From Mobula hypostoma (taxonomy: Eukaryota): DNA of 64,000 nt. The position numbers were made by a program, and so were the translations under genes. The stretch lies in the NCBI RefSeq assembly GCF_963921235.1, contig NC_086108.1:22940001-23004000 (forward strand). The letters are read 5' to 3'. How positions within the stretch are numbered: the first letter of the stretch is position 1; the number at the start of each line of letters is the position of its first letter. Shown piece by piece: positions 8,251 to 63,749 of the stretch. The notes under the pieces were generated by a model. That model did not search any database. It was not told the DNA's origin and worked only from the letters and a program-made list of their open reading frames with translations.

Positions 8251-8261
8251 AATTGAGCTTT

Positions 8262-11529: not shown

Positions 11530-13450
11530 TAATTGCTGTCAGTATATTATTGTCACATGTACCAAAATACAGTGAAAAGCTTGTCTTGCATACTGTTCAT
11601 ACAGATCAAATCTTTACACAGTGCATTGAAGTAGAATAAGGTAAAAGAATAACAATGCAGAATAAAGTGTAAAAGCTACTGAAAGAGTGCAGTGCAGATA
11701 AACGCTAAGTTGAAAACCATAACAAGGTAGATTGTGAGGCCAAGGGTCCACCTTATCATACAAAAGGTCCATTCAAGAGTCAGATAACAGTGGGATAGAA
11801 GCTGTCCTTGAGCTTGGTGGTGCACGCTTTCAGGCTTTTGTACCTTCTGCTTGATGGAAAAGGGGAGAAGAGAGAATATCGGGGGTGGGTGAGGTCTTTG
11901 ATAACGCTAGCTGCTTTGCTGAGGTAGACCAAGTCAATAGTGGGGAGGCTGGTTCCAGTGATGTGCTGAGCTCTGTCCATAATTCTCTGCAGTTACCTGT
12001 GGTCATCTGCAGAGCAGTTTCCGTAACAACCTGTTATGCATCCAGACAAAATGCTTTCTAAGGTGCATCAATAATAATTGTAATTGACAGGGACATGCCA
12101 AATTTCTTTAGCTTCCTGAGGAAATAAAGGCATTGTTGAACTTCTTTTGACTGTGACATCAATGTGATTAGATCAGGTAATGTTTGCACCTAGGAATTTG
12201 ATGCTCTTAACCCTCTCAATCTCAACATCGTTGACGTAGACAGGAGCATGTGCACAACCCAACTTTCTGAAGTTAATCACCAGCTCTTTGTTTCGTTGAC
12301 ATTTGAGGGAAAGTTGTTGTCATGACATCATGTCACGAAGCTAACTATCTCCTTCCTGTACGCTGGCTCATCGTTAAATGATTTGAGATGTGGCCCACTA
12401 CAATGGTATCATCTGCAAATGTGTAGATGGAATCTCTCCACGCAGTCATGAATGTGCAGGGGAAGAATAGGGGACTGAGGACACAACCTTGTGTTGAGCA
12501 TCAGTGTTTTTAGTAATCATGGTGGAGATGTTACTGCCTATCCTTAGTGATTGTGGTTTGTTGATCAGAAAGTCAAGGGTCTAGATGCAGAAGGAGGCAT
12601 TAACTCTCAGAGCCCAGAGTTTGTTTATGTGTTTATTTGTAATAATAGTATTGAAAACGGAACGACAGGTGTCTTTACTGTCCAGATGCGGTATCCTTCG
12701 TAGACCTGTTTAATCGGTGGGCAAATTGCAGTGGGATGGGGTTGTCTGAAAGGCTGGAGTTGACGCATGCCATGACCAGCCTGTTAAAAAATACTTAATG
12801 ATGGTAGATGTTTGAGCCACTGGATGGCCGTAATTAAATCACGTTACTTTGTTACTTTGGGATGAAAGTGGTCTTCTTGAAGTGGGGGTGGGGGGGGGAG
12901 CCACAGCCTGAGGGAGGGAGAGTTAAAAGATAGCTGCAAATACCTCTGCTAGCTGATCTGCATTGGATCTAAGGACATGGACAGGGACACCACCCGGGCT
13001 TTATACTTTCTGCGGGTTCATCTTCTGGAAGAGCGATCTTACATCCGTGACGGTGACTGTAGATTTAGGTAAGATGGAGACCATCAAAGTGGGTGGTGAC
13101 ATATCAATTCCCTTCTGTTTAAGAACACAAAATAAACTGCAGATGCTTGGGTCAAAGCAACACTCACAACACGCTGGAGGAACTCAGCAGGTCAGGCAGC
13201 ATCCATGGAAAAGATCAGTTGACGTTTCGGGCCGGAATCCTTCGTCAGTTTCTCCAGCGTGTTGTGAGTGTTCCCTTCTGTTTAAGCGTGCATGGAATGT
13301 GTCAAGCTGACTGGGAAGGGATATGCTTTTGTCAGCAATGCTGCCTGACTTTGATTTGTATCCCACTATAGTATGTAACAGCTGCAGCTAACGGCTAGGC
13401 TGAGGCTCAATGTTGGATTGATACTTTCTGAGCATCTCTGATAGCGCTAT
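11530..13450 (-). mobile_element. Rex1/Babar-type LINE, degraded, interrupted by a mini-PLE
   Basis: ORF 11780..11980 (KAASVIKDLTHP..RRYKSLKA..LKDSFYP) plus upstream decayed RT sequence. Confidence 0.8.
13124..13270 (-). mobile_element. 147-bp mini Penelope-derived insertion carrying a hammerhead core
   Basis: Flanking direct repeat TTCCCTTCTGTTTAAG (13108-13123 and 13271-13286). Perfect 19-bp inverted repeat at 13161-13179/13252-13270 and a 37-bp one-sided tail. Minus strand reads CTGACGA-AGGATTCCGGCCC-GAAACGTC. Confidence 0.85.
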
Positions 13451-14197
13451 TAACTGATTACAGCACAAACTTATATACAGTGCCTATTAAAAAGTCTTCA
13501 CCCACCCCCTTTAAATCACAGTGGATTTAATTTAGCTTCTATTTTTGAAACTGATCAAGAAAAAGACTCGTGTCAAAGTGAAATCAGATCTCTACAAAGT
13601 GATTGAAATTAACTAAAAATATAAAACAAAATAATTGACTGCATAAGTATTCACCCCATGCAAGTCAGTATTTAGGAGATGCACCTTTGGCAGCAATTAC
13701 AGCCTTGAGTTTGTGTGGATAGGTCTACATCAGCTTTGCACATCTGAACACTGCAATTTTTCTCCATTCTTCCTTACAAAACTGCTCAAGCTCTGACAGA
13801 TTGCATGGGCAGCATGGGAGAACAGCCCTTTTCAAGTCCAGCCACAAATTCTCAATTGCATTGAGGTTTAAACTCTGACTTGGCCCCTTCCGGACATTAG
13901 CTTTATTGTTTTAAGCATTCCTGTGTAGCTTTGGCTCTTTGCTTGGGGTCATTGTCCTGCTGAAAAACAAATCTTCTCCCAAGTCACAGTTCTCTTGTAG
14001 ACCGCATCAGGTTTTCCTCCAGGATTTCCCTGTACTGTGCTGCATTCATTTTACCCTCTACCTTCACAAGCCTTTCAGGGCCTGCTGCAGTGAAGCATCC
14101 CCTCAGCATGATGCAGCCATCACCATGCTTCATGGTAGGGCTGGTGTGTTTTTGATTATGTGTGGTGTTTGGCTTACGCCAAACTAGCATTTAGTCT

Positions 14198-15413
14198 CAA
14201 ACAAGAGAAAATCTGCAGATGCTGGAAATATGAGCAACACACACAAGATGCTGGATGAACTCAGAAGGCCAGGCAGCATCTAAGGGAAAGAGTACAGTTG
14301 ACATTTCGGGCCGAAAGCCTTTGGCAGGACTGGAGAAGAAAAGCTGAGGAGTAGATTTAAAAGGTGGGGAAGGGGAGAGAGAAACACAAGGTAAAAAGTG
14401 AAAACTGAAGGGGGATGGATGAAGTAAAAAGCTAGGAATTAAATTGTTCAAAGAGACAGAGGGCCTTGGAAGAAAGAAAAAGGGGGCAGGAGCACCAGCG
14501 GGAGTTGATGGGTGGGCAAGGAGATGAGGTGAGAGAGGGAAAAGGGGATGGGAAATGGTGAAGGAGAGGGGGGTGTGGGGGGCATTACCGTAAGTTTGAG
14601 CAATCGATGTTCATGCCATCAGGTTGGAGGCTACACAAACTGAACACAAGGTGTTGTTCCTCCAACCTAACTGTGGCCTCGTCATGACAATGGAGGAGGC
14701 CATGGATAGACATATTGGAATGGGAATGGGAAGTGGAATTAAAATGGGTGGCCACTGCGAGATCCCATTTATCAGGCGGACAAAGCGTAGGTGCTCGGCG
14801 AAGCGGTCTGCCAATTTACGGCGGCTCTCACCGATATACAGGAGGCCACACCAGAAGAAAATGCTGCACCTGTCCCTACACCAACTCCCTCACTACCATT
14901 CAGTGCCCTAAACAATCCGTCCAGGTAAAGACCTGTGAGTCTGCTGGGGTCACATACTGTGTCCGGTGTTCCCGGCATGGCCTCCTGTGTATCGGTGAGA
15001 GCATCTTATATTCCGTTTGGGCAGCTCCAACCTGATAGCATGAACATCAATTTCTCCAACTTCCAGAAATCTCCCCACTCCCCCCTCCCCTTCACCACTT
15101 CACATCCCCTTTTCCCTTTGTCACCTTATCTCCTTGTTTGTCCATCGCCTCCCTCTTGTGCTCCTCCCTCCCTTTTCTTTCTTCCATGGCCTTCTAACGC
15201 TTTCACCAATTTACTTCCTAACTTTTTACTCCATCCCTCCCACTTCAGGTTTCACCCATCACCTTATGTTTCTCTCTTTCCCCCCACCTTTTAAATCTAC
15301 TCCTCAGCGTTTTTTCTCCAGTCCTACCAAAGGGTTTTGGTCCGAAACATCGACTGCTCTCTTTTCCTAGATGTTGCCTGGCCTGCTGAGTTCCTCCAGC
15401 ATTTTGTGTGTGT
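14198..15413. mobile_element. Penelope-like element, inverted head-to-head 3' fragments, nested in the Tc1 transposase
   Basis: 13-bp TSD TAGCATTTAGTCT (14185-14197 and 15414-15426). GIY-YIG remnants on both strands (ADRFAEHLR; YCVRCSRHGLLCIGE). 39-bp extra tail on the left; both hammerhead cores are decayed. Confidence 0.9.
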
Positions 15414-16020
15414 TAGCATTTAGTCTGATAGCCAAAAAGCTCAATTTTGGTTTCACCAGGCCATAGAACCTCCTTCCAGCTGACTTCAGTCTCCCACATG
15501 CCTTCTAGCAAACTCTAGCCAAGATTTCATGCGAGTTTTTTTCAACAGAGACTTTCTCTTTGCCACTCTCCCATAAAGCTGCGACTGGTAAAGCAACCGA
15601 GCAACAGTTAATATGCATGGTCTCTCTCATCCCAGCCACTGAAGCTGGTAACTCCTCCAGAATTGTCATACGGCTCTTGATGGCTTCCGTCATGAGTCCC
15701 CTTCTGCACGGTCACCCAATGTTTGAGGACGGTCTGCTCTAGGCAGATTTACAGCTGTGCCATATTCTTTCCATTTCTTGATAATTGACTTAATTGCACT
15801 CCAAGGGATATTCAGTGACTTGGAAATTTCCTTGTATCCTTTTCCTGACTTGTGCTTTTCAATAACCTTTTTGCAGAGTTGCTTGGAGTGTTCTTTTGTC
15901 TTCATGGTGTAGTCTTTGCCAGGATACTGACTCACCAGCAGCTAGACCTTCCATTTAACTAATTATATGACTTCTCAAACCAATTGGTTGTACCAGTGAT
16001 GATTTGGTGTGTCATATTAA

Positions 16021-16130
16021 AGAAAAATAGAGGGCTATGGGTAACCCTCGGTAATTTCTAAAGTACATGTTCAGCACAGAATTGTGGGCTGAAGGTTCTG
16101 TATTGTACTGTAGGTTTTCTATGTTTCTAT
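16021..16130 (+). mobile_element. CR1 3' tail fragment inserted at the inner edge of the Tc1 right TIR
   Basis: Matches the 3' UTR of the CR1 at 23.9-24.05 kb and ends in ttctatgtttctatg. Confidence 0.8.
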
Positions 16131-16350
16131 GGGTCAATACGTATGCAATCAATTATTTTGTGTTTTAAATTTGTGATTAATTTAGATCACTTCGTAGAGA
16201 TCTGTTTTCATTTTGACATTAAAGAGTCTTTTTCTGTTGATCAGTGTCAAAAAAGCCAAATTAAATCCATTGTGATTCAACGTTGTAAAACAATAAAAAA
16301 TTTAAAAACATCCGGGGGGGGGGGCTGGTGAATACTTTTTATGGGCACTG

Positions 16351-17348
16351 TGGCTAGTGTGCCAAAGACTCTCGCACAGTACTATTGTAAGTTTATGTAT
16401 TGCCACAAAAAAAACTAATTTCATGACATATATGAGTGATGATAAACCTGATTCTGGTCTGGGTCTCTACTGTGGACTGAGAGTGGGAAGGGGGAAGAGA
16501 GAGGGGAATCATGGTTGGGAAAAGGGGAAGTGGGTGGGAAGCACCACGGAGACATTCTGTAATGTCAATAAAGTAATTGTCTGGATTCAAATAAGCTTGC
16601 CTGGTGTCTCTGAGCTGGGTGTGTTTGCACTAGCACTGCTCCTCTACCATCTGTCCCACACCCCTCCTGCAGTGCTCCACCTTCGCCATTCTCCCCACCA
16701 GATTTATAAACTTGCTCTCTGCTCCACATTGACAAAAACAGTACTGTGCAAAAGTTTTAGGTGTCTATATATGTAACATGCTGTAGGGTTTCACTGCTGT
16801 GTAACATGCTGTAAGGTTTCACTGATAATGTAATGGTTTCTCTGTAGCAGCGATGTTTGGGTTATGACTAGAGATAACGGGGTTTAGAGTGCTATTGTTC
16901 TTTCTTGTGAGTCTGGAAGAGAGATTTTCACGGTCTTTGAGGAGAGGAGAGAGGACACGAGTGGAGGGAGTTGGTAGACCGCTGGACAGGGCGGATGGAG
17001 CGAGGGTCCAAAGGGCAGTGATGATCGGAGAAGGTCGATGGTGGACAATCGGCTTATCAGTGAGCTCCAACGTTGCGCAATAGACTGTTCCATAAGATTG
17101 GGCCCTCTTACTTTTTTTTCGTTTTCTTTACTAACCATATAGTCAAGGTAAGGACTAATCATTTAATCGCATATTGTGTACGGTTTGTTATTTCAGGGTA
17201 CTGATTTGTAACAGGGGACACATCGCACAGCATCCACCCAAACGAGATTTCTTAAGTTTGGCCGGGCCGGGGGCTATCACCCCCTATATTAAGCAACTAG
17301 CTGAAGCGTGAGTTACATATATATACCTAAAACTTTTGCATAGTACTG
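16351..17348 (-). mobile_element. Hairpin-ended composite element, copy 2 (reverse orientation), interrupted by a solo LTR
   Basis: Core is the reverse complement of the 51.5 kb copy. Half hairpin at 16351-16385; the second hairpin is split into 16739-16771 and 17318-17348. Confidence 0.8.
16772..17317. mobile_element. Solo LTR (546 bp)
   Basis: TGTAAC...GTTACA terminal inverted repeats, 4-bp TATA duplication on both sides, and a short internal duplication of the first ~28 bp. Confidence 0.8.
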
Positions 17349-23925: not shown

Positions 23926-23926
23926 T

Positions 23927-26283
23927 AGAAACACTGAAACATAGAAAACCTACAGCACAATACAGGCCCTTCAGCCCACAAAATGTGCCGAACATGTCCC
24001 TACCTTAGAAATTACTAGGATTACTCATAGCCCTCTATTTTTCTAAGCTCCACGTATCTATCCAAAAGTCTTTTAAAAGACACTATCATATCCGCCTCCA
24101 CCACCGTTGCCGGCAGTCCATTCCACGCAGTCACCACTTTCTGAGTAAAAAACTTACCCCTGACACCTCCTCTGTACCTACTCCCAAGCACCTTAAACCT
24201 CTGCCCTCTTGTGGCAGCCGCTTCAGCCCTGGGAAAAAGCTTCTGACTATCCACACGATCAATGCCTCTCATCATCTTATACACCTCTATCAGGTCACCT
24301 CTCATCCTCCGTCGCTCCAAGGAGAAAAGGCCGAGTTCACTCAACCTGTTTTCATAAGGCATGCTCCCCAATCCAGGCAACATCCTTGTAAATCTCCTCT
24401 GCACCCTTTCTATGGTTTCCACATCCTTCCTGTAGTGAGGCGACTAGAACTGAGCACAGTACTGCAAGTGGGGTCTGACCATGGTCCTATATAGTTGCAT
24501 CATTACCTCTCGGCTCCTAAATTCAATTCCACGATCGATGAAGGCCAATACACCGTATGCCTTCTTAACCACAGAGTCAACCTGCACAGCTGCTTTGAGC
24601 GTCCTATGGACTCGGACCCCAAAATCCTTCTGATCCTCCACACTGCCAAGAGTCTTATCATTAATATTATATTCTGCCATCATACTTGACCTACCAAAAT
24701 GAACTACTTCACACTTATCTGGGTTGAATGCCATCTGCCACTTCTCAACCCAGTTTTGCATCCTATCAATGTCCTGCTGTAACCTCTGACACCCTCCACA
24801 CTATCCACAACACCCCCAACCTTTGTGTCATCAGCAAACTTACTAACCCATCCCTCCACTTCCTCATCCAGGTCATTTAGTCAGGGTCCCAGAACAGATC
24901 CCTGAGGCACACCACTAGTCACCGACCTCCGTGCAGAATATGACCCGTCTACAACCACTCTTTGCCTTCTGTGGGCAATCCAGTTCTGGATCCATAAAGC
25001 AATGTCCCCTTAGATCCCATGCCTCCTTACTTTCTCAATAAGCCTTGCATGGGGTATCTTATCAAATGCCTTGCTGAAATCCACATACACTGCATCTACT
25101 GCTCTTCCTTCATCAATGTGTTTAGTCACATCCTCAAAAAATTCAATCAGGCTTGTAAGGCATGACTTGCCCTTGACAAAGCTATGCTGACTATTCCTAA
25201 TCATATTATACCTCTCCAAATGTTCATAAATCTTGCCTCTCAGGATCTTCTCCATCAACTTACCAACCACTGAAGTAAGACTCACTGGTCTATAATTTCC
25301 TGGGCTATCTACTCCTTTTCTTGAATAGGGGAACAACATCCGCAACCCTCCAATCCTCCGGAACCTCTCCCGTCTCCATTAATGGTGCAAAGATCATTGC
25401 CAGAGGCTCAGCAATCTCCTCCCTCGCCTCCCACAGTAGCCTGGGGTACATCTCATCTGGTCCCGGCAACTTATCCAACTTGATGCTTTCCAAAAGCTCC
25501 AGCACATCCTCTTTCTCAATATCTACATGCTCAAGCTTTTCAGTCTGCTGGAAGTCATCACTACAATCACCAAGATCCTTTTCCATAGTGAATACTGAAG
25601 TAAAGTATTCATTAAGTACCTCTGCTATTTCCTCTGGTTCCATACACACTTTCCCACTGTCACACTTGATAGGTCCTATTCTTTCACGTCTTATCCTCTT
25701 GCTCTTCACATACTTGTAGAATGCCTTGGGGTTTTTCTTAATCCTGCCTGTCAAGGCCTTCTCATGGCCCCTTCTGGCTCTCCTAATTTCGTTCTTAAGC
25801 TCCTTCCTGTTAGCCTTATAATCTTCTAGGTTGCTAATATTACTTAGCTGTCTGAACCTTTCGTAAGTTTTTCTTTTCCTCTTGACTCGATTTACTACAG
25901 CCTTTGTACACCACGGTTCCTGTACCCTACCATAACTTCCTTGTCTCTTTCGAAGGTACCTATGGAGAACTCCACACAAATATCCCCTGAACATTTGCTG
26001 CATTTCTTCCATACCTTTCTCTGAGAACATCTGTTCCCAATTTAAGCTTCCAAGTTCCTGTCTGATAGCCTCATAATTCTCCTTACTCTAATTAAACGCC
26101 ATTCTAACTTGTCTGTTCATATCTCTCTCCAATGCTATTGTAAAGGAGATAGAATTATGATCACTATCTCCAAAATGCTCTCCCACTGAGAGATGTGACA
26201 CCTGACCAGGTTCATTTCCCAATACCAAATCAAGTACAGTCTCTCCTCTTGTAGGCTTATCTACATATTGTGTCAAGAAACCT
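23927..26283 (-). mobile_element. CR1 LINE (second family), 5'-truncated ORF2 with stops and an internal deletion
   Basis: ORFs 26088..26276 (APE: LDLVLGNEPG..SDHN), 25305..26030, 25010..25345 (NYRPVSLTS, DFSKAFDK), 24444..24761 and 24021..24422. Confidence 0.95.
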
Positions 26284-32993: not shown

Positions 32994-33046
32994 ATCCAGG
33001 CGTGTTCGTCCGGACCGTTTGGTATCTCCTTGAATATTTACTCTCC

Positions 33047-34407: not shown

Positions 34408-36911
34408 AGAAACAGAAACATAGAAAATAGGTGCAGGAGTAGGCCATTTGGCCCTTCGAGCCTGCACCACCATTTATTATGATCATGGCTGATCATCTAA
34501 CTCAGAACCCTGCCCCAGCCTTCCCTCCATACCCCCTGATCCCCGTAGCCACAAGGGCCATATCTAACTCCCTCTTAAATATAGCCAATGAACTGGCCTC
34601 AACTGTTTCCTATGGCAGAGAATTCCACAGATTCACCACTCTCTGTGTGAAGAAGTTTTTCCTAATCTCGGTCCTAAAAGGCTTCCCCTTTATCCTCAAA
34701 CTGTGACCCCTCGTTCTGGACTTCCCCAACATCAGGAACAATCTTCCTGCATCTAGCCTGTCCAATCCCTTTAGGATCTTATACGTTTCAATCAGATCCC
34801 CCCTCAATCTTCTAAATTCCAACGAGTACAAGCCCAGTTCATCCAGTCTTTCTTCATATGAAAGTCCTGCCATCCCAGGAATCAATCTGGTGAACCTTCT
34901 TTGTACTCCCTCTATGGTAAAGAAGTCTTTCCTCAGATTAGGGGACCAAAACTGCACACAATACTCCAGGTGTGGTCTCACCAAGGCCTTGTACAACTGC
35001 AGTAGTACCTCCCTGGTCCTGTACTCGAATCCTCTCGCTATAAATGCCAGCATACCATTTGCCTTTTTCACCGCCTGCTGTACCTGCATGCCCACTTTCA
35101 ATAACTGGTGTATAATGACACCCAGGTCTCGTTGCACCTCCCCTTTTCCTAATCGGCCACCATTCAGATAATAATCTGTTTTCCTATTTTTGCCACCAAA
35201 GTGGATAACTTCACATTTATCCACATTAAATTGCATCTGCCATGAATTTGCCCACTCACCCAACCTATCCAAGTCACTCTGCATCCTCTTAGCATCCTCC
35301 TCACAGCTAACACTGCCACCCAGCTTTGTGTCATCCTCAAACTTGGAGATGCTGCATTTAATTCCCTCATCCAAGTCATTAATATATATTGTAAACAACT
35401 GGGGTCCCAGCACTGAGCCTTGCGGTACCCCACTAGTCACTGCCTGCCATTCTGAAAAGGTCCCGTTTATTCCCACTCTTTGCTTCCTGTCTGCTAACCA
35501 ATTCTCTATCCACATCAATACCTTACCCCCAATATCGTGTGCTTTAAGTTTGCACACTAATCTCCTGTGTGGGACCTTGTCAAAAGCCTTTTGAAAATCC
35601 AAATATACCACATCCACTGGTTCTCCCCTATCCACTCTACTATTACATCCTCAAAAAATTGTATGAGATTCGTCAGACATGATTCTCCTTTCACAAATCC
35701 ATGCTGACTTTGTCCGATTATTTCACTGCTTTCCAAATGTGCTGTTATCACATCTTTGATAACTGACTCCAGCAGTTTCCCCACCACCGACGTTAGGCTA
35801 ACCGGTCTATAATTCCCCGGTTTCTCTCTCCCTCCTTTTTTAAAAAGTGGGGTTACATTAGCCACCCTCCAATCCTCAGGAACTAGTCCAGAATCTAACG
35901 AGTTTTGAAAAATTATCACTAATGCATCCACTATTTCTTGGGCTACTTCCTTAAGCACTCTGGGATGCAGACCATCTGGCCCTGGGGATTTATCTGCCTT
36001 TAATCCCTTCAATTTACCTAACACCACTTCCCTACTAACATGTATTTCGCTCAGTTCCTCCATCTCACTGGACCCTCTGTCCCCTACTATTTCTGGAAGA
36101 TTATTTATGTCCTCCTTAGTGAAGACAGAACCAAAGTAATTATTCAATTGGTCTGCCATGTCCTTGCTCCCCTAATCAATTCACCTGTTTCTGTCTGTAG
36201 GGGACCTACATTTGTCTTTACCAGTCTTTTCCTTTTTACATATCTATAAAAGCTTTTACAGTCATTTTTTATGTTCCCTGCCAGTTTTCTCTCATAATCT
36301 TTTTTCCCCTTCCTAATTAAGCCCTTTGTCCTCCTCTGCTGAACTCTGAATTTCTCCCAGTCCTCAGGTGAGCCACTTTTTCTGGCTAATTTATGCTTCT
36401 TCTTTGGAATTGATACTATCCCTAATTTCTCTTGTCAGCCACAGGTGCACTACCTTCCTTGATTTATTCTTTTGCCAAACTGGGATGAACATTTGTTGTA
36501 GTTCATCCATGCAATCTTTAAATGCTTGCCATTGCATCTCCACCGTCAATCCTTTAAGTGTCATTTGCCAGTCTATCTTAGCTAATTCACGTCTCATACC
36601 TTCAAAGTTACACCTCTTTAAGTTCAGACCCTTGGTTTCTGAATTAACTATGTCACTCTCCATCTTAATGAAGAATTCCACCATATTATGGTCACTCTTA
36701 CCCAAGGGGCCTCTCACGACAAGATTGCTAATTAACCCTTCCTCATTGCTCAAAACCCAGTCCAGAATAGCCTGCTCTCTAGTTGGTTCCTTGACATGTT
36801 GGTTCAAAAAACCATCCCGCATACATTCCAAGAAATCCTCTTCCTCAGCACCTTTACCAATTTGGTTCACCCAATCTACATGTAGATTGAAGTCACCCAT
36901 TATAACTGCTG
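34408..36911 (-). mobile_element. CR1 LINE, young 5'-truncated copy of the same family as 1-1254
   Basis: ORFs 36391..36900 (APE: MGDFN..SDHN), 35557..36159 and 34610..35635, the last nearly identical to ORF 24..1157. Has FEDD instead of FADD, frameshifts and a premature stop. Confidence 0.97.
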
Positions 36912-37570: not shown

Positions 37571-38381
37571 TGTCACAGTCCGGTCCTTTGACTCCTCATT
37601 TCAGTTAATTTCCTTTTCCCCATGTTCTACGGGCCTCCTTGATTAGGGCACCTGATTTTCATCCGAACCAGCAGCATAAAAACTCCAGCTTACATCTACT
37701 CAGTGCTGGTCCGTCTCCTGAGCAGGGCGGTAATGCACGTTCCGGGCCACCGAGAATAGTGGACTCTAACTTGCTTCGGTGCCTGGGGTTGCTTTGTGAA
37801 TTCTGTCGTTTTTGTGTCCAGCTGAGTTTAGCCAGCCGTTTGCTGCTACTCCGAGTCAAGAAATGAATTCTGTCATTTTCGTGGGCAGCTAAGAATTGCA
37901 GGCCGTTTGCCACTCTTCCGAGTCAAGATACAAATTGACTGTCATTGTTTGGTGTTTACATCTTGTGTCCAGCTGAGTATTGCAGGCCGTTGGCCGCTAC
38001 TCTGAGCCAAGATACGAATCGACTGTCATTGTTTGGTTTTGCTGTCCTGTGTCCAAGTTTGAGTCCAGGCTCCGTGTCCGAGTCTGAATCCAGGCTCCAT
38101 GTCCGCGTCCGAGTCCCAGTCCAGGCTCCGTGTCCAAGTCCAGGCTCCGTGTCCGAGTCCGAATCCAGGCTCCGTGTCTGCGTCCGAGTCCAAGTCCAGG
38201 TTCTGTGGCCAAGTCCAAGTCCAGTTTCCTCCAATTTGTTGTCCAAAGTTTATGTCCATGTAAGCATTTAACGCTCACTCTCCGGCCTTCCTGGCAACTA
38301 TTAATAAAATACACTTCTGTAATGCTACCTCCATGTCTGTGTCCTGCAACTTGGGTCTGCTTGCAGTCTCTCATTGTAACA
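37571..38381 (+). mobile_element. Solo LTR (811 bp), probably Ty3/Gypsy type
   Basis: TGTCACA...TGTAACA termini, 5-bp TSD GCCAG (37566-37570 and 38382-38386), AATAAA at ~38302, and internal tandem repeats. Confidence 0.9.
38045..38225. repeat. Degenerate (GTCCRA)n-based tandem array within the solo LTR
   Basis: Repeated gtccgagtcc/aggctccgt units, which produce the low-complexity ORFs in all frames. Confidence 0.85.
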
Positions 38382-44072: not shown

Positions 44073-44808
44073 AGCCACCATAGACAAAGCCTGGTAGGAT
44101 TCCCTTGGATGACACAGAATGCCCTCATACTATACATCAGGATGAGCTGCCCACCATTGAACTCAGTGAGACTGAGGCATTTCTGTAATTGGGTCATGGA
44201 TTGTCATGAAACCTCTTAGGGCCATTCAGTATAGAATCAGCTCTTCCCTCCATGTTGACCCTCAAGCACCCAATTACACTAGCCCCTGATATTGATATTC
44301 TTTTCTCCCCAATCTCTGATTGATTCCACAATGTCTTCCACAGTAGAGGATTTGAGGCTTATTAACGTGGGTCGGTAGATTACAGGTGAGTGACCTTGAT
44401 AATTTTGGTAAGCTCCCTTTCACTGGATTGAATTCTACTGCATGATTTTGCAGGTTCTTCATAAGAGACATCTATTTACCAGTGTAATGAAAATATTTTA
44501 AAATTTGTTCTTTGTTCTTTTCTGAGACAGCAGTAAGAGGTATCCATAAACAAAGGGGGCACTGTATACATGTTAAAGATTATGAAAAAGTACTTTATTA
44601 GAATTATATAAACATTAAAAATCAAAAAAGAGGAAGAATACTTAATAAAGTAGAGAAGGAAGCAAAATAATACTTATCATCCACATAATGAACGAATCTA
44701 TACAATGCCAGAGGGAAGCACAGCTGTCCAACAATCTTTCACACAGCTTCACACATCAAAGTTGCTGGTGAACGCAGCAGGCCAGGCAGCATCTCTAGGA
44801 AGAGGTGC

Positions 44809-44844
44809 AGTTGACGTTTCAGGCTGAGACCCTTCGTCAGGACT
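44809..44844 (-). ncRNA. Minimal type I hammerhead ribozyme motif in the PLE pseudo-LTR
   Basis: Minus strand AGTC-CTGACGA-AGGGTCTCAGCCT-GAAACGTC-AACT; one mismatch in helix I. Confidence 0.75.
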
Positions 44845-47800
44845 AACTGAAAGAAGAGCTGGTAAGAGATTTGAAAGTGGGAAGGGAGGGGGAGATACAA
44901 AATGATAGGAGAAGACAGGAGGGGGAGGGATGGAGCCAAGAGCTGGACAGGTGATTGGCAAAAGGGGATACGAGAGGATCATGGGACAGGAGGCCCAGGG
45001 AGAAGGAAAAGGGGGGGGGACCCAGAAGATGGGCAAGGGGTATAGTCAGAGGGACAGAGGGAGAAAAAGGAGAGTGAGAGAAAGAATGTGTGTATATAAA
45101 TAACGGATGGGGTACGAGGAGGAGGTGGGGCATTAGCAGAAGTTAGAGAAGCCAATGTTCATGCCATCAGGTTGGAGGCTACCCAGACGGAATGTAAGGT
45201 GTTGTTCCTCCAACCTGAGTGTGGCTTCATCTTTACAGTAGAGGAGGCCGTGGATAGAGATGTCAGAATGTGAATGGGATGTGGAATTAAAATGTGTGGC
45301 CACTGGGAGATCCTGCTTTCTCTGGCGGACAGAGCGTGGGTGTTCAGCAAAACGATCTCCCAGTCTGCGTCGGGTCTCGCGAATATATAGAAGGCCACAT
45401 CGGGAGCACCGGACGCAGTATACCACCCCAGCCGACTCACAGGTGAAGTGTCACCTCACCTGGATGGACTGTCTGGGGCCCTGAATGGTGGTAAGGGAGG
45501 AAGTGTAAGGGCATGTGTAGCACTTGTTCCGCTTACAAGGATAAGTGCCAGGAGGGAGATCGGTGGGGAGGAATGGGGGGGACGAATGGACAAGGGAGTC
45601 GCGTAGGGAGCGATTCTTGCGGAAAGCAGAGGTGGGGGAGGGAAAGATGTGCTTATCGGTGGGATCCCATTGGAGGTGGTGGAAGTTACGGAGAATAATA
45701 TGTTGGACCCGGAGGCTGGGGGGGGGGGGCGTGGTAGGTGAGAACCAGGGGAACCCTATTCCTAGTGGGGTGGCGGGAGTTTGGAGTGAGAGCAGATGTG
45801 CGTGAAATGGGGGAGATGCGTTTGAGAGCAGAGTTGATAGTGAAGGAAGGGAAGCCCTTTTCTTTAAAGAAGGAGGATATCTCCCTCGTCCTGGAATGAA
45901 AAGCCTCATCCTGAGAGCAGATACGGTGGAGATGGAGGAATTGCGAGAAGGGGATGGCATTTTTACAAGAGACAGGGTGAGAAGAGGATTAGTCCTGATA
46001 GCTGTGAGAGTCGGTAGGCTTATAGTAGACATCAGTAGATAAGCTGTCTCTGAGATAGAGACAGAAAGATCTAGAAAGGGGAGGAAGGGGTCGGAAATGG
46101 ACCAGGTAAACTTGAGGGCAGGGTGAAAGTTGGAGGCAAAGTTAATAAAGTCAAAGAGCTCAGCATGCGTGCAGGAAGCAGTGCCAATGCAGTTGTCGAT
46201 GTAGCGAAGGAAAAGTGGGGGACAAATACCAGAATAGGTACGGTACATAGATTGTTCCACAAAGCCAACAAAAAGCAGGCATAGCTTGGACCCATGCTGG
46301 TGCCCATAGCTACACCTTTAGTTTGGAGGAAGTGGGAGGAGCCAAAGGAGAAGTTATTAAGAGTAAGGACTAATTCCACTAGATGGAGCAGAGTGGTAGT
46401 AGAGGGGAACTGATTAGGTCTGGAATCCAAAAAGAAGCGTAGAGCTTTGAGACCTTCCTGATGGGGGATGGAAGTATATAGGGACTGGACATCCATGGTG
46501 AAAATAAAGTGGTGGGGCCAGGGAACTTAAAATCATTGAAAAGTTTAAGAGCGTGAGAAGTGTCACGAACATAGGTCGGAAGGGATTGAACAAGGGGTGA
46601 TAAAACCGTGTCGAGGTATGCAGAAACGGGTTCGGTGGGGCAGGAGCAAGCTGAGACACCAGGTCTGCCAGGACAGGCAGGTCTCTGGATCTTGGATAGG
46701 AGGTAGAAACGGGAAGTGCGAGGTGTGGGAACTATAAGGTTGGTAGCCGTGGATGGGAGATCCCATGAGCGGATAAAGTCGGTGATGGTGTGGGAGACAA
46801 TGGCCTGGTGCTCCTTAGTGGGGTCACGATCGAGGGGTAAATAAGAGGAGGTATCCGCGAGTTGTCTCTGTGCCTCGGCAAGGTAGAGGTCAGTACGCCA
46901 GACTACAACAGCACCCCCCCTTATCGGCGGGTCTAAGAGTAAGGTTAGGATTAGTGCGGAGGGAGTGGAGAGCAGAGCGTTCCGAAGGAGTGAGGTTGGA
47001 ATGGGAACAAGGTGTGGTGAAGTTGAGACGGTTGATGTCCCGTTGGCAGTTAGCAATAAAGAGATCCAGGGTAGGCAGAAGACCAGAGCGGGGTGTCCAT
47101 GAAGAGGAGGAGGGTTGAAGACAGGAGAAGGGGTCATCGGTGGGGCTGGAAGAGTACTTGCCGAAGAAGTAGGCTCGGAGACAGAGACGGCGGAAGAACA
47201 GTTCCGCATCATGGCGAACGTGGAACTCGCTGAGGTGTGGGTGAAGGGGGACAAAGGTGAGGCCCTTACTGAGGACAGAGCAAACTGTCTCAGACAGTTG
47301 AAGGTCGGAGGGGATGGTAAAGACCCAGCACGGATGAGAGCTGGGATCAGAGGGGGGACGGGGGAGGCTGGGGGTGTCAGTGGAGATGGGAGGATTGGGG
47401 TGAGAGGAAGTTGGAGCCTCTGAGGGCCCAGGAGCTGACAATGGGGTCTGAGGGAGACGGGGTTGCAGAGTAGTGGTGGGGGAAGGGGAGACGGGAGTCA
47501 CAATAGCAGCACATAAAGACCCAGCCTGGAATTGAAGGCTGGAGTCGCAGTTGGTGGATGCGCAATGGCTTTGGAGGTGTCCATGATCGTTGCTGGAGAT
47601 CCAGGCCGGGTCTTTATGTGCTGCTGTTGTGACTCCCTCAGAGGCTCCATCTTCCGCTCACCCCAACCCTCACTTCACCTGTGAGTCGGCTAGTGTGATA
47701 TACTGCGTCCGGTGCTCCCGATGTGGCCTTCTATATATTGGCGAGACCCGACACAGGCTGGGAGATCGTTTTGCTGAATACCTACGCTCTGTCCGCCAGA

Positions 47801-48282
47801 GAAAGCAGGATCTCCCAGTGGCCACACATTTTAATTCCACATCCCATTCCCATTCTGATATGTCTATCCATGGCCTCCTCTACTGTAAAGATGAAGCCAC
47901 ACTCAGGTTGGAGGAACAACATCTTATGTTCCGTCTGGGTAGCCTCCAACCTGATGGCATGAACATTGACTTCTCTAACTTCTGCTAATGCCCCACCTCC
48001 CCCTCATACCCCATACGTTATTTATGTACACACATTCTTTCTCTCACTCTACTTTTTCTCCCTCTGCCCCTCTGACTATACCCCTTGCCCATCCTCTGGG
48101 TTCCCCCCCCTCCCCCTTTTCCTTCCCCCTGGGCCTCCTGTCCCATGATCCTCTCATATCCTTTTTGCCAATCACCTGTCCAGCTCTTGGCTCCATCCCT
48201 CCCCCTCCTGTCTTTTCCTATCATTTTGGATCTCCCCCTCCCCCTCCCACTTTTAAATCTCTTACTAACTCTTTTTTCAGTT

Positions 48283-48318
48283 AGTCCTGACGAAGGGTCT
48301 CAGCCCGAAACGTCGACT
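48283..48318 (+). ncRNA. Minimal type I hammerhead ribozyme motif in the PLE pseudo-LTR
   Basis: AGTC-CTGACGA-AGGGTCTCAGCCC-GAAACGTC-GACT: intact CUGANGA, GAAA and GUC, helix I AGTC/GACT, helix II GGGT/GCCC. Confidence 0.85.
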
Positions 48319-48659
48319 GTACCTCTTCCTAGAGATGCTGCCTGGCCTGCTGTGTTCACCAGCAACTTTGATGTGTGTTGCTTGAATTTGTAGCATCTGC
48401 AGAATTCCTCGTGTTTGCGTTTCACACAGCTTTCTCTATTTATCCTAGCACTGGTCATGACTCAGTCTGAAGGAAGATTCCAATTTGCACAAAGAAGTTG
48501 CTCCCTTTAATACCTTACAAAAATTATTTACCCTCTTTTTTTCTCATGGGAAAAGTAGCAGGAGGTATTTGCACCTGTAGAGTCAGCTTCCCCTTCCCAG
48601 ACAAACACGTTTTTCACCATATCTACTCTCAAGGCTATAGACTGGTAACTCAAACTTGT

Positions 48660-54150: not shown

Positions 54151-54409
54151 TAAAACTCGACTATTAGAGGACAACAGCAGATGTCAGCATCTTGTCATTG
54201 TTGGTTTCTGTATGTTTGCACTGTCTGGACTTTATTCTGGATATTACTCAGGTTTGGAAAATCAGAGCTCCCAGCATACAGATCACTTACACACAGTTCC
54301 TGATTAGATTTTCACTCTCCGTAGATACTTCATGATCTGCCAGGCCTTCACAATACTTTCGTTTTGTTTCATGTCTCAGTGACCGATCTGTATTTCACAG
54401 ATTCTTGAG

Positions 54410-54843: not shown

Positions 54844-56129
54844 TCAACTTCGTCCTCTAGAAACACGGAAATTAGTTGGGTAACTTTACCCAATCTGAGA
54901 TATCCCATCCTCGCCCTCTCTGCCACTTCAAAGTAACTTATTTTCTCGGCTTCTTAGTCCTTCACCTGAAATATTAACCCAATGTCTCTCTCCACAGTTA
55001 CTGTCTGACCTGCTGAGTGTTTCTGGTATCGTCTACTGTTATTCCTAAAAGGGAGCTTGTTGTGGGTCCAGTGAACAGACCTTACCACACCTTAGACTGT
55101 GACTTTCACATCGGGGTGGGTTAGCCCAAATCTTAAAAACGTAATAAAGAAAATAATATTGGTGTGAAGACATTTCCGTTCTTCCTAATGAACAGCCCCA
55201 CAAGAGTCCAGCCAGACCGAGCGGAGGGTGAGTTCCTGAGAAGGGTAAATGTAAATTCAGCCTCTCTTTGCTGATGTTCTCTGGGTTTATCTGTGGGCCT
55301 GAACCATTTATGGCCATGTGCCTGTTTGTCTTGCAGCGAGGAGATGGTACCTGCTTTTCAATGCAACAGGGATTTATATCTGCAAGCCCCTGCCACAAAA
55401 TATAGCTAAGGGCGCCAGGCAGAATTCCTTCTGCTCTACAGATCTCATTAATTTGTGGTTCTAAACTCCACTAAGTGCAAGGATAGGCCATCTGTATACC
55501 TGCCTGAAAACACACATACTGTCACCCAGAGGGTCGTGATTAACAGTAAGGAAGGCCAGGTTCTTTTCTGGTTGTTTATTAATGTGAGAAATATAATTTT
55601 CCCTCAATAAGAACACACTTCTACATTTAAAGAGAAGTATGTAAATGAATATTTGCAGCTGAATTGCTTCTACTGTGAGTATATAGGTCAGGAAGAGATC
55701 AGCTGTACAGCAATCTGATGCACTACTCAAAGATGAACTTGAAAAAATCATGGGCTAAGTAATCCTCTGGGCATCTTTCTAGATTTTAGAGTCGCCACAA
55801 GATTGATAAAGCCAAGCATTTCAAAATCTCTCGAAATTCCTTCTGCAGAGTGTTCCTAAGCAATTATTCCTTCGTTCCAGGCAACAATTCCGATATTTTT
55901 AATGGAATGATTCAAGACATCATGGACTCTTAGAGAATGAATTCATCATTGGAGACTAAGTATTTCCCACCGTATGAGATCCTCCTTAAGACCAGGCCCG
56001 TTTATCGGATGCAATCATTCTGTAGCAGCTGATTAGTACATTCATTTAAGAAATCAGATCAGGATTATGGTGTTATTACTTGGAGCTATACAATATGTTT
56101 CATGCTCTGAGCCAGATCCCACAGACCGA

Positions 56130-57550: not shown

Positions 57551-57559
57551 GCTCCTTCC

Positions 57560-58320
57560 CTGATTAGAGTTGAGTTTCTTGAAGCTGCACACGTCCAGGA
57601 AAGTGCAGAGCATTCCATCACACCGACTCCTAGCCTCTGACCTGTGGTCTATATGACTACTCCAGTTTCTAGTCAATGGTCGATGCCCATCCTTGAGGAT
57701 GGGATATTTGTGGAGCCACCTCCTCTGAAGAATTTATTGTCCACCACCATTCACATCTGAATGTGGCAGGATTGCAGAGCCTAGCTGGCCAGTCCTGTTT
57801 GGCCAGGTCTGGCCCATTTAGCATGGCAGTAGTGCCATACACATGATGATGTGTTTTTTCACTGTGGAGATGAGATTTTGTCTCCACAAGGACTCTTACT
57901 GACACTGTTATGGACAGATGCATCTGTAACAGGTCTATTGGGTAAGTCAAGATCAAACAGGCTTTTCTCTCCTGTTGGTTCCCTCACCACCATCTGCAGA
58001 GCCAACAGAGCACCAATGTCCTTTAGTGCTCGACCAGCTGGATCTGCAGTGGAGCTACTGAGCCACTCTTGGTGATGGATGTAGACGTCCCCCACCCAGG
58101 GTACATTTTGTGATTAGTCACCCTCAGTGCTTCCTCCAAATGATTTTCTACGTTGAGAATTGATTCCTCAGCCAAGGGGAGCATGGGGAGAGACAGCTGA
58201 CGGCAATCGATTCCTTACTAAAGTTTAACCAAATGCCACAGGGCTTCATGGATGTGGAGTCAATGTTGCGGACTGCCAGGGTAGTTCTCTTCCCCCCACC
58301 CCCATTGTACACACTACCTC
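57560..58320 (-). mobile_element. Ancient CR1/L2-group LINE endonuclease remnant (related pieces at ~37210-37400 and ~52070-52780)
   Basis: MGDVYIHHQEWLSSSTADPAG..VVREPTGEKSLFDL is a decayed APE (GDFN.HH..W, PTRG..LDL). Confidence 0.7.
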
Positions 58321-58847
58321 TGCAGACATGTAGAACACAACGTATCCAAAAATAAGAAGAGCTTGTGCTGTTAATTATAAATTATGATTCAGTGAGTATG
58401 ACTTGATAGACAGTTGTTTGACTAGTTTGTATGATGAGTTTGATTACCAGACAACATTGACAACTGATAACAGAGTCATGGAAATGCAGAGATAGTTGTG
58501 AAGGAAAATCCTAGTTTTCTGCAACCCCTCAAGGGATGGTAAGAAATCCTCTCATAGAAGTATATGCAGAAGTCTAAAATTTTTCTTCCGGCATTGGAAC
58601 CAGGGAGACATCTGAATGTGACTAACATAAGCTAGACTCAATGCTCAAATGGCAGCAGCTAAGGTCAGTGACCTGCCATTACTGATGACTGGGGACACAG
58701 TGAGGATGACATTCATACCAGACTGACACCAGGCATCACTGCAGGGAAAGTAACTCAACACATTGCAAGGTCAGGATGGATAAAGTTGTCCCAGAGTGGA
58801 GCAGGCAACATCCCTGGGAATCCACTCAAGAAGGTTGCTTAATATAA

Positions 58848-59600
58848 TTGAATTGAATTGACTTGTTGCTATTTCTTACATCCTTCACATACGAGGAGTA
58901 GAAATCTTTACGTTATGTCTCTGTCTAAATGTGCAATGTGCAATCATAGTAATTTATAATAATTTATAATAAATAGAACAGTCAATGTAACAGAAGTACA
59001 CTCAAATCAGTGTAAGTTAATCAGTCAGATGGCCTGGTGGAAGAAGTTGTCCTGGAGCCTGTTGGTCCTGGCTTTTATGCTACAGTACCGTTTCCCAGAT
59101 GGTAGCAGCTGGAATACATTGTGGTTGGGGTGACTCGGGTTCCCAGTGATCCTTCGGACCCTTTTTACACACCTGTCTTTGTAAATGTCCTGAATCATGG
59201 GAAGTTCACAACTGTAGATGTGCTGGGCTGTCCACACCACTCTCTGCAGAGTCCTGCGATTAAGGGAGGTACAGTTCCCATACCAGGCAGTGATGCAGCC
59301 AGTCAGGATGCTTTCAATTGTGCCCCTGTAGAAAGTTCTTAGGATTTGGGGGCCCATACCAAACTTCTTCAACTGTCTGAGGTGAAAGAGGCACTGTTGT
59401 GCCTTTTTTACCACACAGCTGGTGTGTACAGAGGTGATGTGGATGCTGAGGAACTTAAAGCTGTTTCCCCTCTCAACCCCAGGTCCATTGATGTCAATAG
59501 AGGTTAGCCCATCTCCATCCTCCTGTAATCCACAACCAATTCCTTTGTTTTTGTGACATTGAGGGAGAGGTTGTTTTCTTGGCATCACTGTGTCAGAGAG
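58848..59600 (-). mobile_element. Rex1/Babar LINE 3' portion
   Basis: ORF 59025..59627 (FKFLSIHI, ESILTGCITAWYGNC, FQLLPSGKRY) and an (ATTCA)n tail. Confidence 0.9.
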
Positions 59601-60249
59601 ATAGTCAAGATACTGGTATGCAGACACATCAGTAACCCAGCAGGATGAAAACTACCAGACCTTGCCAATGTGAGCACAGTAACTGCACCATATATGTATA
59701 GATATGCACGGGCAGCCCAGCAGCCCAGGTAAATGGAAAACTTTGTGCCAAAGTGAAGCAGGGACAAAAACAAATATTTTCAACATTTGATTCTTTTGCT
59801 TTTTTTATTATTAAAGAAGTAATGTAATATGTGGCTTATATGTTACAATTAAGGATTGTAGTATATGCTAAGTGTTTTGTTTATAAACTGCAATAATCTT
59901 TACAGAAACACTTCCAGGAAGTCTCTCCCTGTTGTTGGCTTGTCTCTGTGCAGCATACTCATAGCAGAGGAAAGATGAAAGTCTCACAGGTCCCATTGTA
60001 AGGTCTTTTGTTTAATAATGGACTTAGCTGGTTTAACCTGCTGCCTACCCCACTGATTCAAATATGAAGGATTTCAGGGATAGCGTGTGGTTGGAGATCT
60101 GTCTGCGGTGGCTGGTTCTCTCGATATTATCCTCCAGTGCAACCCCAGCATAACAGAAAATACCGAATGAGGTACCGTACCTATGACTCTCTTGCAGGAG
60201 TGACCATGGGAAGATTCTATGTGGTGACGGGGATCATGATACAGTCTGT

Positions 60250-60620
60250 GAGTCACACAGTATGGAAACAGGCCCTTCGGCCCAACTCATCCATCCTGAC
60301 CAAGTTGTCACTCTGAGATGATCCCATTCGCCCACATCCTCCAAACCTTCCCTGTCCACATGTGCTTTAAACATCATAATTCTACTTACCTGTACTACTT
60401 CCTCTGGCAGCTCAATCCACATACCCATCACTCTGTGTGAAAAGGTCGCTTTCAAATATTTTTCCTCTTAGCTTAAACCCATGCTGAGTTTTAGAGTCTC
60501 CTACCATGAGAATCAACTGTGGATCATTCATCTTATCTGTGTCCTTCATAATCATATATGATCATCCGTCAGCCTCCAGTACTCCATGGGGAAAATTCCT
60601 AACCTATCCAAATTCTTGCA
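60250..60620 (-). mobile_element. Degraded CR1 3' fragment
   Basis: ORF 60234..60455 (FSHRVMGMWIELPEEVV) and tail ggaaacaggcccttcggccc. Confidence 0.75.
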
Positions 60621-60899
60621 ACTCAAGTCCAAATCTCACACACACATGCATGTGGGTGTTACAGAGAAGCTTAATGTATCCTCCAGCTACTCTAATATGC
60701 TGTGCTGTCTTTCGGCTCCTGCTTTTTTGTATTCCTGTGGAGACTCTGGATCCCTCACTGGGGCCAGAAGACCTTGGATAGAAATCTCAGAATACAAGTC
60801 ACCTTGGAATGGGACATCCCATCACAGGTTGTAGCCATGATTCACTATGGAGAGTCATCTGCTTGTATTGAGATGGCAATCAGCAAAAAACAAAAGGAC

Positions 60900-61185
60900 G
60901 GCCCAGTGGCGTAGTGGTTAGAGTATCATCTTACAGCACCTGGCGGTTCAATCCTTGCCACTTTTAAAGAGTTTTCATGTTCTCTTTGTGGCCATGTGTA
61001 GTTCCTCCAGGTGCTTCAGGTATGGTTAGAGTTTATGAGTTTTGGGCATGTTATTTTGCTGCCAGGAGCATGCCAACACTTGCAAAATCCATGCTGATTT
61101 AATTTGATGTAAATGATGCATTTTACTGTATGTTTTGATGTTCATGTGACAAACAAAACTAATCTTTAATCTAATCTTTAATCCT
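60900..61185 (+). mobile_element. tRNA-derived SINE (V-SINE-like) with a LINE-derived tail
   Basis: A-box TGGCGTAGTGG, B-box GGTTCAATCC, V-like ttcctccaggtgct, and an (aatctt)n tail. Confidence 0.7.
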
Positions 61186-61519
61186 ATTTACAACATCATC
61201 TTTTTAAATTAATGTTGATGTAATGTACCAAATTGCTGATGCTCTCCATGTGTGTTCACTTGGCAGGCTTGCATATTTGTTACAGGAGTCTAGTTTGCAG
61301 TATTTGCTGCCATGATGTACACCAGATGGAATATCAGATGATGTGGTTAAAGGTTCTATGCTACCGGTGCAAGTTGTCTCGGTTCTCTGCCGCTTGGAAG
61401 GTTTTGATGCCACATTTGGTGAGGGGGCAACAAGCTACCAATGGAATAGTCAATGCCTTTGTCACCTGTGGTGATACCTGTTTGGCCAGATCATATCAAG
61501 GCCCTTGACTCTGCGTTTG

Positions 61520-62800
61520 CTCCAACCTCATAGCCCAATGGCTAAGCAAGCTCACCACCTCCTCTACTTCCTAATTTTTACGGTGCACCATAGAAAGCAT
61601 CCTTTCTGGATGGATCACAGCTTGCTATGGCAACCACAGTGCATGTAACCGCAAGAAGCTGCAGAGAGTTGCAGATGAAGCTCGGCGCATCAGGGAAGCA
61701 TCTATGGACTCTGTCTGTATTTCTCACTGCCTTTTTAAAGCAGGGAACTTAATCAAAGACCCCACCCACCCCGGGCATACTCTATTCTCCCCCCTTCCCC
61801 CGGATAGAAGATACAAATGCCTGAAAGCACGTACTATAAGGCTCAAGGACAGTTTCTACCCTGCTGCTATAAGAGAAATAAATAGTTCCTTGGTACAATA
61901 AGTTGAGCTCTAGATCTCATAATTTACTCAGTTAGGATCTTACATCTTACTACTGCACCACAGTTTCTCTGTAACTCTTACACTTTATTCTACTTGTACT
62001 ACCTCAATGCACTGTGTAATGATCTGATCTATATGAACAGTATTTAAGACAAATCTTTCATTGCATCTAGTTACATGTGACAATGATAAACCAATTCCAA
62101 TTCCAATTCTAATATGGTTTAATTGCTGAGAAATTGACTTCATGGATATCATCCACTGTATGTAAAATCCATGTCAACTTCTATAGATGTGTAGTGGACA
62201 ATATATTGACTGGCTGTATCACAGCGTGGTATGAAAACACCAATATCCTCGAATGGAAAACCCTACAAAACTGGTAGATACAGCCCAGCCCATCTCAGGT
62301 GAAACCCTCTCCATCATTAAGCATATCTACATGGAGCGTCGTCACCAGAAAGCAGCATCAACCATCAGGGATCCCCACCACCCGGGTCATGCTCTCTTCT
62401 TGCTGCTGCCATCAGGGATGTGATACAGGAGCCTCAGCACTCATACCACTAGGTTCAGGAACAGTTACTACCTCTAAAATCTCTTTGGCACTTTAACCGA
62501 GGGGGATAACTTCACTCAACTTCACTTGCCCCGTAACGCACTGTTCCCAATACTGATGGACTCGTTTTCAAGGACTTTTCATCTCACGTTCTTGATAATT
62601 GTTGCTTGTTTGTTTGTTTATTTATTTATTTATCTTTTGTATTTGCAGAGTTTGTTGTCTTTTGCACACTGGCTGTCTGTCCTGTTGGATTCTATTATTA
62701 TTAATAGATTTATTGAGTATGACCACAAGAAAATGAATCTCAGGGTTGTACATGGTGTCGAAAATGTACTTTGATAAAAAGTTGCATTGAACTTTGAACT
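61520..62800 (+). mobile_element. Two tandem Rex1/Babar LINE 3' fragments (~61520-62110 and ~62170-62800)
   Basis: ORF 61704..61901 (IKDPTHPGH..RRYKCLKART.RLKDSFYP). The first copy has an (attcca)n tail and the second a (ttgaac)n tail. Confidence 0.85.
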
Positions 62801-63005
62801 TTGAAATTCTTCAAAGCATCCAATGGATCAAATCCTCCAGTACACAGAATAGTAGAGATACAGCAGCTCAGTAATGCAAACGTAATCAGGCTTAAAGGAG
62901 AGAATGGACGATGAAGGAAACTAAAGGAATTAAAATGAAAGCAATAAACATTATTGAGTTACATGTATCAGGGCTGAGACAGGAAAACTGTGATAAAGAA
63001 AATGC

Positions 63006-63232
63006 AAACAACAGGAATTCTGCAGATGCTGGAAATTCAAGCAACATACATCAAAGTTGCTGGTGAACGCAGCAGGCCAAACAGCATCTATAGGAAGAGG
63101 CGCAGTCGACGTTTCAGGCCGAGACCCTTCGTCAGGACTGTCCTGACGAAGGGTCTCGGCCTGAAACGTCGACTGCGCCTCTTCCTATAGATGCTGCTTG
63201 GCCTGCTGCGTTCACCAGCAACTTTGATGTAT
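63006..63232. mobile_element. 227-bp palindromic mini-Penelope with two back-to-back hammerhead motifs
   Basis: 93-bp arms (63046-63138 and 63140-63232) with 1 mismatch and a 1-nt spacer. 40-bp one-sided tail. 13-bp TSD ATAAAGAAAATGC (62993-63005 and 63233-63245). Confidence 0.93.
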
Positions 63233-63749
63233 ATAAAGAAAATGCTACTGATTGTAAAAGTGAACCTTTCTCAACAGATTGAACATAACCAAAATTATAA
63301 AAATCTGAAGTAAAAGTGGAAAATTTTGAAAACATTCAGCTGCTCAGGCAGCAGAAGTGGAAGAGAACTGGAGTGAATGTTTCAGGGAACTCTACACTCT
63401 AATTGTGTTACTTGGACAATGGATTTTACTGAAAGGGAACTAATTTATGAGCCTATTTTTTGCCCCCTATATGAAGTGTCTTGGGATGTGTTTTAATGTT
63501 AAACGCTCGGTCAGATTCTGTTCGCATTGTGGTTAAATGATTGGTCAGATACATTCATTTGGTTTATCTCAATGCCCAGTGCTTTAAACCCCACGAGACT
63601 TTATTTTGTTCTTATGCAATTCATTTGGTTCAAAACAGTTAATACCTTGGAGTAGTGGTTCTTCCCGCTCTGCTTCCTCCAGACCTTTAGCATTGGGCTG
63701 GTGTGAGACAGGATGAAACAGACTGGAAATGATAGAAGATAATAATCCT

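Follow-up and report, generated by a model that had tools for sequence, protein, structure and literature searches.

What kind of insertion leaves a retrotransposon with two of its own 3′ ends, both facing outward, at a single target site? The question is raised by Penelope-like elements (PLEs) in a 64,000-nucleotide stretch of Mobula hypostoma DNA (NCBI RefSeq assembly GCF_963921235.1, contig NC_086108.1, positions 22,940,001 to 23,004,000 of the forward strand), hereafter the window, with positions counted from its first letter. How PLEs complete their insertion is still an open question in the field. The reading we favour is that both nicks of a staggered cut probably prime synthesis, from an outer and an inner start site, and that the products are then joined head to head.

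Layout of the two-armed units

A preliminary description of this DNA had placed four PLE insertions at 13124-13270 (E1), 14198-15413 (E2), 44750-48419 (E3) and 63006-63232 (E4), with 3′ ends facing outward at both sides and one end reaching 37, 39, 42 and 40 nt beyond the other. We recovered the same coordinates, and re-measurement of the extension, here called the tail, returned the same values. E1, E2 and E4 carry the tail at their left end, and E3 carries it at its right end. The orientation of E3 is also seen in its coding sequence: a minus-strand open reading frame (ORF) with a C-terminal GIY-YIG domain runs towards 44750, and a second endonuclease copy on the plus strand runs towards 48419. 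The parts of these units and of a fifth copy (E0), absent from the preliminary description, are as follows (UTR, untranslated region).

8862..8961, minus strand: E0 left arm, beginning 2 nt inward of the right arm's template stop
8963..8995, plus strand: E0 right arm, the tail alone, ~33 nt
13108..13123, no strand: E1 left target-site copy, exact repeat of 16 bp (14-16 given the edge overlap)
13124..13248, minus strand: E1 long arm, bearing a 37-nt tail on its outer side and stopping inward at the 5′ edge of the putative hammerhead core
13249..13270, plus strand: E1 short arm, 22 nt, untailed
13271..13286, no strand: E1 right target-site copy, exact repeat of 16 bp
14185..14197, no strand: E2 left target-site copy, 13 bp (12-13), within a Tc1-type transposase gene
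14198..14850, minus strand: E2 left arm, with endonuclease end, 3′ UTR and 39-nt tail
14859..15413, plus strand: E2 right arm, untailed, lacking ~175 nt internally at 15000/15002 when compared with E3
15414..15426, no strand: E2 right target-site copy, exact repeat of 13 bp
44737..44749, no strand: E3 left target-site copy, exact repeat of 13 bp
44750..47600, minus strand: E3 long arm, untailed, with 5′-truncated frameshifted ORF, 3′ UTR and putative hammerhead motif
47600..47679, plus strand: E3 junction, two templated pieces of 38 and 45 nt, which repeat 47493-47530 and 47382-47426 in inverted orientation
47671..48419, plus strand: E3 short arm, with endonuclease, 3′ UTR, putative hammerhead motif and 42-nt tail
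48420..48432, no strand: E3 right target-site copy, exact repeat of 13 bp
62993..63005, no strand: E4 left target-site copy, 13 bp (11-13); the orthologous site of organism B has neither this copy nor the element
63006..63139, minus strand: E4 left arm, 40-nt tail, stopping at the 5′ edge of the putative hammerhead stem I
63140..63232, plus strand: E4 right arm, untailed, 92/93 nt identical to the left arm
63233..63245, no strand: E4 right target-site copy, exact repeat of 13 bp

A profile of the element ends had 11 matches at E < 0.05 in the window. Ten of these are the ends that had built the profile, and the remaining match (54964-55019) is an old fragment that lacks ends. The ten recognisable ends make up five two-armed units, in each of which a tailed end is paired with an untailed one. 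In the alignment, outer ends occupy columns 1-5 and inner ends columns 42-44, with the exception of E0, whose inner end lies at column 36, 5-8 nt further out than those of the other units. The offset of ~40 nt claimed earlier is borne out as two narrow start zones, which recur in three sequence groups (E1; E2; E3 with E4). Identity between the groups is 76-84% over the terminal 20-135 nt, which makes "at least three subfamilies" a fair description, while the ends of E3 and E4 are 90-94% identical over the same length. The arms of E0 are adjacent and non-overlapping, with a 2-nt gap on the template. Among the 15 listed of 614 joints in E4-matching contigs, the tailed arm ends before the inner site in two, 63036 to 63180 and 63042 to 63149, both of them present in run X1 as well as in run X5, and the geometry of E0 may therefore not be unique to it.

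Target-site copies and the empty site of E4

The flanking repeats of 16, 13, 13 and 13 bp are exact. Ambiguous edges had been noted for E1 only, but letters that fit both target and element occur at E1 (2 at the inner end), E2 (1 at the inner end) and E4 (2 at the outer end) alike. The stagger can therefore be 14-16 bp in E1, 12-13 bp in E2, 13 bp in E3 (one edge uncheckable) and 11-13 bp in E4, a spread beyond what an empty site could resolve, and the fixed ~13-bp stagger proposed earlier was overstated. The AT content of the targets is 62-77%, against 57% across the window.

As a chance control, 3000 random pairs of 30-nt window stretches were compared, close pairs being skipped. The longest word common to a pair never exceeded 9 nt. 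The flanking match of E0 (8/9 nt), equalled by 17% of 2983 random pairs, is not above chance.

For E4, contigs from four runs were aligned to 62500-63800, a check in a related species that the preliminary description had proposed. Letters 1-264 of an 846-nt contig of organism B (run X5, record 17) match 62730-62992, and letters 265-832 (568 letters) match 63233-63800; the contig lacks the E4 element and exactly one 13-mer. Organism B diverges from the window by ~2% (16 differing letters in 832). Since this empty site holds a single 13-mer, rather than both copies as the refuting outcome named in the preliminary description would have required, the E4 duplication is real. Record 16 of run X11 matches from 63233 on, preceded by 68 unplaced letters, and would be consistent with an empty site; run X9 had almost no coverage beside E4. 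E4 is the youngest copy. No paralogous empty site was found for any element in the window.

The duplication of E2 is supported by its host, a decayed Tc1/mariner transposon (13511-16280) with inverted ends of ~150 bp at 13511-13656 and 16131-16280. Aligned with Sleeping Beauty, the transposase can be followed to residue 56 on one side (ungapped count from aligned residue 53) and from residue 58 on the other. When the E2 insert and one target copy are taken out, 2 nt remain where 3 are expected, i.e., the transposase is restored to within 1 nt. As a separate observation, the right end of this transposon resembles 23936-24044.

These results bear on the possibility that the arms are chance neighbours, being two independent adjacent insertions or lying between chance repeats. 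The 17% divergence of the E2 arms and the lack of a clear duplication at E0 would fit it. However, a single duplication encloses both arms in four cases, matches of 13 nt never arose in the random pairs, and the empty site of organism B lacks both arms at once, which largely refutes it for E4. We consider such a coincidence very improbable.

Probable priming at the two nicks

At each side of the units, the strand whose 3′ end completes the duplication runs on as antisense element sequence. Such continuation at both sides would be expected if target-primed synthesis started from each end of a staggered cut. In the scheme that we consider probable, each unit would be one insertion of an endonuclease-positive, Neptune-type PLE. 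Its protein would cut both strands in a staggered manner, leaving 3′ overhangs of ~11-16 nt as judged from the duplications, and reverse transcription would be primed from both 3′ ends, which would use two RNA sites ~40 nt apart, an outer one for one end and an inner one for the other. End joining would then connect the two truncated complementary DNAs (cDNAs) head to head, and the duplication would result from fill-in. The start positions had earlier been placed on the RNA 3′ end; they should be internal sites (PMC11167929).

Inverted arms could also arise from a single priming event, if the cDNA folded back or primed itself and copied an inverted arm (an antisense RNA variant is given in PMC3846280). 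The arms of E4, identical at 92/93 nt and with the same end point, the 2-3 nt match through which the short arm of E1 is joined, and the inverted templated pieces at the E3 junction would all suit such a course, and self-priming was inferred from palindromic junctions in PMC3846280. However, a fold-back copy must be contained in the first cDNA, and simple fold-back thus fails for E3 and E0, where neither arm lies inside the other. The tailed arm of E3 measures 750 nt, while the untailed arm is 2.85 kb long and reaches 2.1 kb deeper into the element, so that neither arm was copied from the other. Of 409 aligned sites of the E2 arms, 68 differ, and a private deletion is present in one arm, while the duplication is identical at 13/13 positions (p ~0.09 if the arms were initially identical). 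The centre of E4 is a palindrome with a 1-nt spacer, which would seem too tight for a hairpin loop. Fold-back as the general source of the inverted arms is therefore unlikely in our judgement.

The arms also carry some signs of their templates. Two RNA templates are weakly hinted at by the divergence of the E2 arms and by a difference between the E3 arms at a site that splits the family (63102, G or A, at 38-52% of summed depth in three runs). The adjacent arms of E0 point to a single template. The changes between the E3 arms, 5 synonymous and 11 non-synonymous, favour neither one template nor two.

A different origin has been considered for the tail itself, which would be a product of endonuclease-mediated resolution (in the wording of PMC8557442): both arms would start alike and one would be trimmed by ~40 nt. 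A tail at one end only would then need no coupled choice of sites, and endonuclease recognition in D. virilis needed the tail (as cited in PMC11167929). Against this, reverse transcription starts were mapped in vitro to both edges of the tail (PMC11167929), and an arm that consists of the tail alone, as in E0, is left unexplained. We rate trimming as quite improbable.

If both nicks do prime, the start sites may still have been chosen independently at each nick, with staggers in a family-typical spread around 13-15 bp and the apparent rule a small-sample impression. One-sided tails in four of four (p = 0.06) or five of five cases (p = 0.03) are not out of reach of independent choice, no difference between strands in the use of start sites was seen in vitro (PMC11167929), and family-typical duplication lengths are ordinary for target-primed elements (15 bp for L1 and 5 bp for ZfL2-1; PMC4245944). 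PLE duplications have been termed variable (PMC8557442), and those of L1 spread over 7-20 bp (PMC2837659). What speaks against independence is that all ten recognisable ends of the window, the same that built the profile, pair a tailed with an untailed one, and that the tail is often at one end only (PMC8557442). Granted two-ended priming, we regard this variant as quite possible, without thinking it likely. Each nick may require a start site of its own, a reading drawn from the five cases.

At the other extreme, the two-armed insertion would be the normal and obligate route. A dimer would cut ~13 bp apart and in every case supply one nick with the outer site and its partner with the inner one, so that second-strand priming would not be needed separately; units such as E0 would arise when the outer polymerase meets the inner primer on a shared RNA and is blocked there. 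We put this forward tentatively and lean against it; the single integration rule of the preliminary description is not established by four or five cases.

Several points weigh against priming at both nicks as the common origin of these units. The cases number only five and come from one window, and E0, having no significant duplication, is not proven to be a single event. E1, whose short arm lies wholly inside the long arm, is equally compatible with fold-back, as is E4 if its tight centre is set aside. The E3 junction contains two templated jumps, each involving a match of 2-3 nt and together bridging 1.9 kb of element sequence, so that DNA-templated steps occur too. In PMC11167929, no difference in start site was seen between top and bottom strand, and the protein tested came from a Poseidon, not a Neptune element.

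The layout of an inverted arm, a tail at one end and a short duplication is already published and is not new. The preliminary description was right to recall inverted pseudo-long terminal repeats (pLTRs) with a short extra tail as a Penelope trait (PMC3846280, PMC8557442). For Pen2a_Av and Pen2_Av of Adineta vaga, inverted pLTRs, a 31-bp tail at one of them, duplications of 8, 9 and 10 bp and an empty allele were described (PMC3846280), and a tail of 30-40 bp, often at a single end, is part of the scheme in PMC8557442; the tail length for Penelope is 34-37 bp (PMC2377424). Our units share with these the head-to-head arms within one duplication, the 30-40 nt tail on one arm, the palindromic junctions and the 5′ truncation. 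They differ from the rotifer copies in their duplications (13-16 bp rather than 8-10 bp), in tails of up to 42 nt, in their host, a cartilaginous fish, and in unit lengths down to 134-227 bp.

The purified Poseidon protein PAc of Anolis carolinensis, predicted to be a dimer, cut and extended both strands in vitro and started reverse transcription at two internal sites that bound the tail (PMC11167929). Two start sites bounding the tail, a hammerhead motif just upstream and AT-rich targets are common to that system and ours; PAc belongs to the Penelope/Poseidon clade, whereas the element here has a Neptune/Nematis zinc finger in the linker between reverse transcriptase (RT) and endonuclease. 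In the main text of PMC11167929 the two sites are not tied to the two ends of one inverted insertion, the words duplication and stagger have 0 occurrences, and the steps after first-strand synthesis are left unvalidated.

Twin priming and dual priming were defined for L1 (PMC2837659). As there, both nicks would prime here, judging from the geometry of the arms, and two inverted pieces lie in one duplication. The second site of L1 is internal and found by annealing, while here it is fixed ~40 nt in. L1 twin priming leaves adjacent, non-overlapping arms, as in E0; those of E1-E4 (4/5) overlap, for which read-through or a second RNA (dual priming) would be needed. Of the twin-priming-like mechanism proposed earlier, priming at both nicks stands as the best reading, simple fold-back failing for E3 and E0, while the L1-type arrangement holds in one of five units.

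The empty site and the non-nested arms give useful support to two-ended priming as read from these sequences. No paper pairing two start sites with the two nicks of one insertion was found in a search of titles, abstracts and freely accessible papers; passages of PMC9977147, PMC8969392 and bioRxiv 10.64898/2026.07.22.740005 contributed no further information. If the published start sites are indeed paired with the two nicks, the inverted arms, the one-sided tail and the duplication would all follow from one step.

The element, its putative hammerhead motif and other repeats

By its motifs, the element is an endonuclease-positive Penelope-like retrotransposon, as the preliminary description had it. 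On the minus strand of E3, DKG is followed by the RT motifs, then by a C-X4-C-X2-C linker, and lastly by a GIY-YIG domain that includes CCHH. The Pfam matches of the broken E3 pieces are weak, with E = 0.00093 for GIY-YIG, below its cut-off, and E = 0.013 for RVT_1; both RT and GIY-YIG are present in the homolog P0009. The CCHH zinc finger, with two Cys between GIY and YIG (VYCVRCSRCGLLYIGE) and two downstream His, is found in E3 and its homologs, one His being changed in the right arm of E3. The zinc finger of the RT-endonuclease linker (PCKRNKCYTC) is likewise present in E3 and its homologs. As a CX2-5CxxC zinc finger at this position is a mark of the Neptune and Nematis clades (PMC8557442), the element groups with these and not with Penelope/Poseidon. 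One E3 piece returned 24 homologs, the best from Hypanus sabinus, Mobula hypostoma and Rhincodon typus. Between the two clades, Neptune would be the more probable placement. The element-end pattern had 0 loci in metagenome, prokaryote-genome and viral contigs; for the endonuclease, metagenome and genome contigs gave no match, and viral contigs a single one of 16 residues.

A minimal hammerhead core (CUGANGA and GAAAC with a minimal helix III) was intact in 5 arms by pattern scan, ~90-95 nt inward of the inner end, and its stems I and II form on folding. Rfam returned no hammerhead match, only hairpin-driven microRNA matches below cut-off, and no significant structure emerged when four element ends were folded (z -0.78 to 1.58). 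The putative motif resembles the minimal hammerheads of metazoan PLEs (PMC4209133) in its core, its minimal helix III and its place in the element end; it differs in being missed by Rfam. The longer arms of the short units end (at 8961, 13248 and 63139) close to the 5′ boundary of the hammerhead stem I or core, at a distance of ~4 nt at most; these three ends do not coincide with the predicted cut site.

The family is very abundant, with tens of thousands of contigs matching E4 per run, and is recently active, which makes the pairing of start sites and nicks testable by simple counting. The E4 letters at 63047, 63101 and 63177 make up 20-37% of summed depth in X1, <3% in X5 and <1% in X11; summed depth is not a copy number, but the figures suggest that the E4 subfamily expanded in this lineage alone. 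No direct tandem (a direct pLTR before a full ORF) was found in the window, where every copy is 5′-truncated.

In addition, an isolated internal PLE ORF fragment without ends lies at 8255-8430, and old diverged look-alikes of the element end lie at 54964-55019 (E = 0.001) and 63334-63386 (E = 0.35), possibly from an ancient related family. A short tandem array of 25-nt units was found at 38044-38218. Finally, 17-1245 and 34414-35642 are inverted copies, 98% alike, of a 1.2-kb RT region from a recently active family of long interspersed nuclear elements, presumably of CR1 type.

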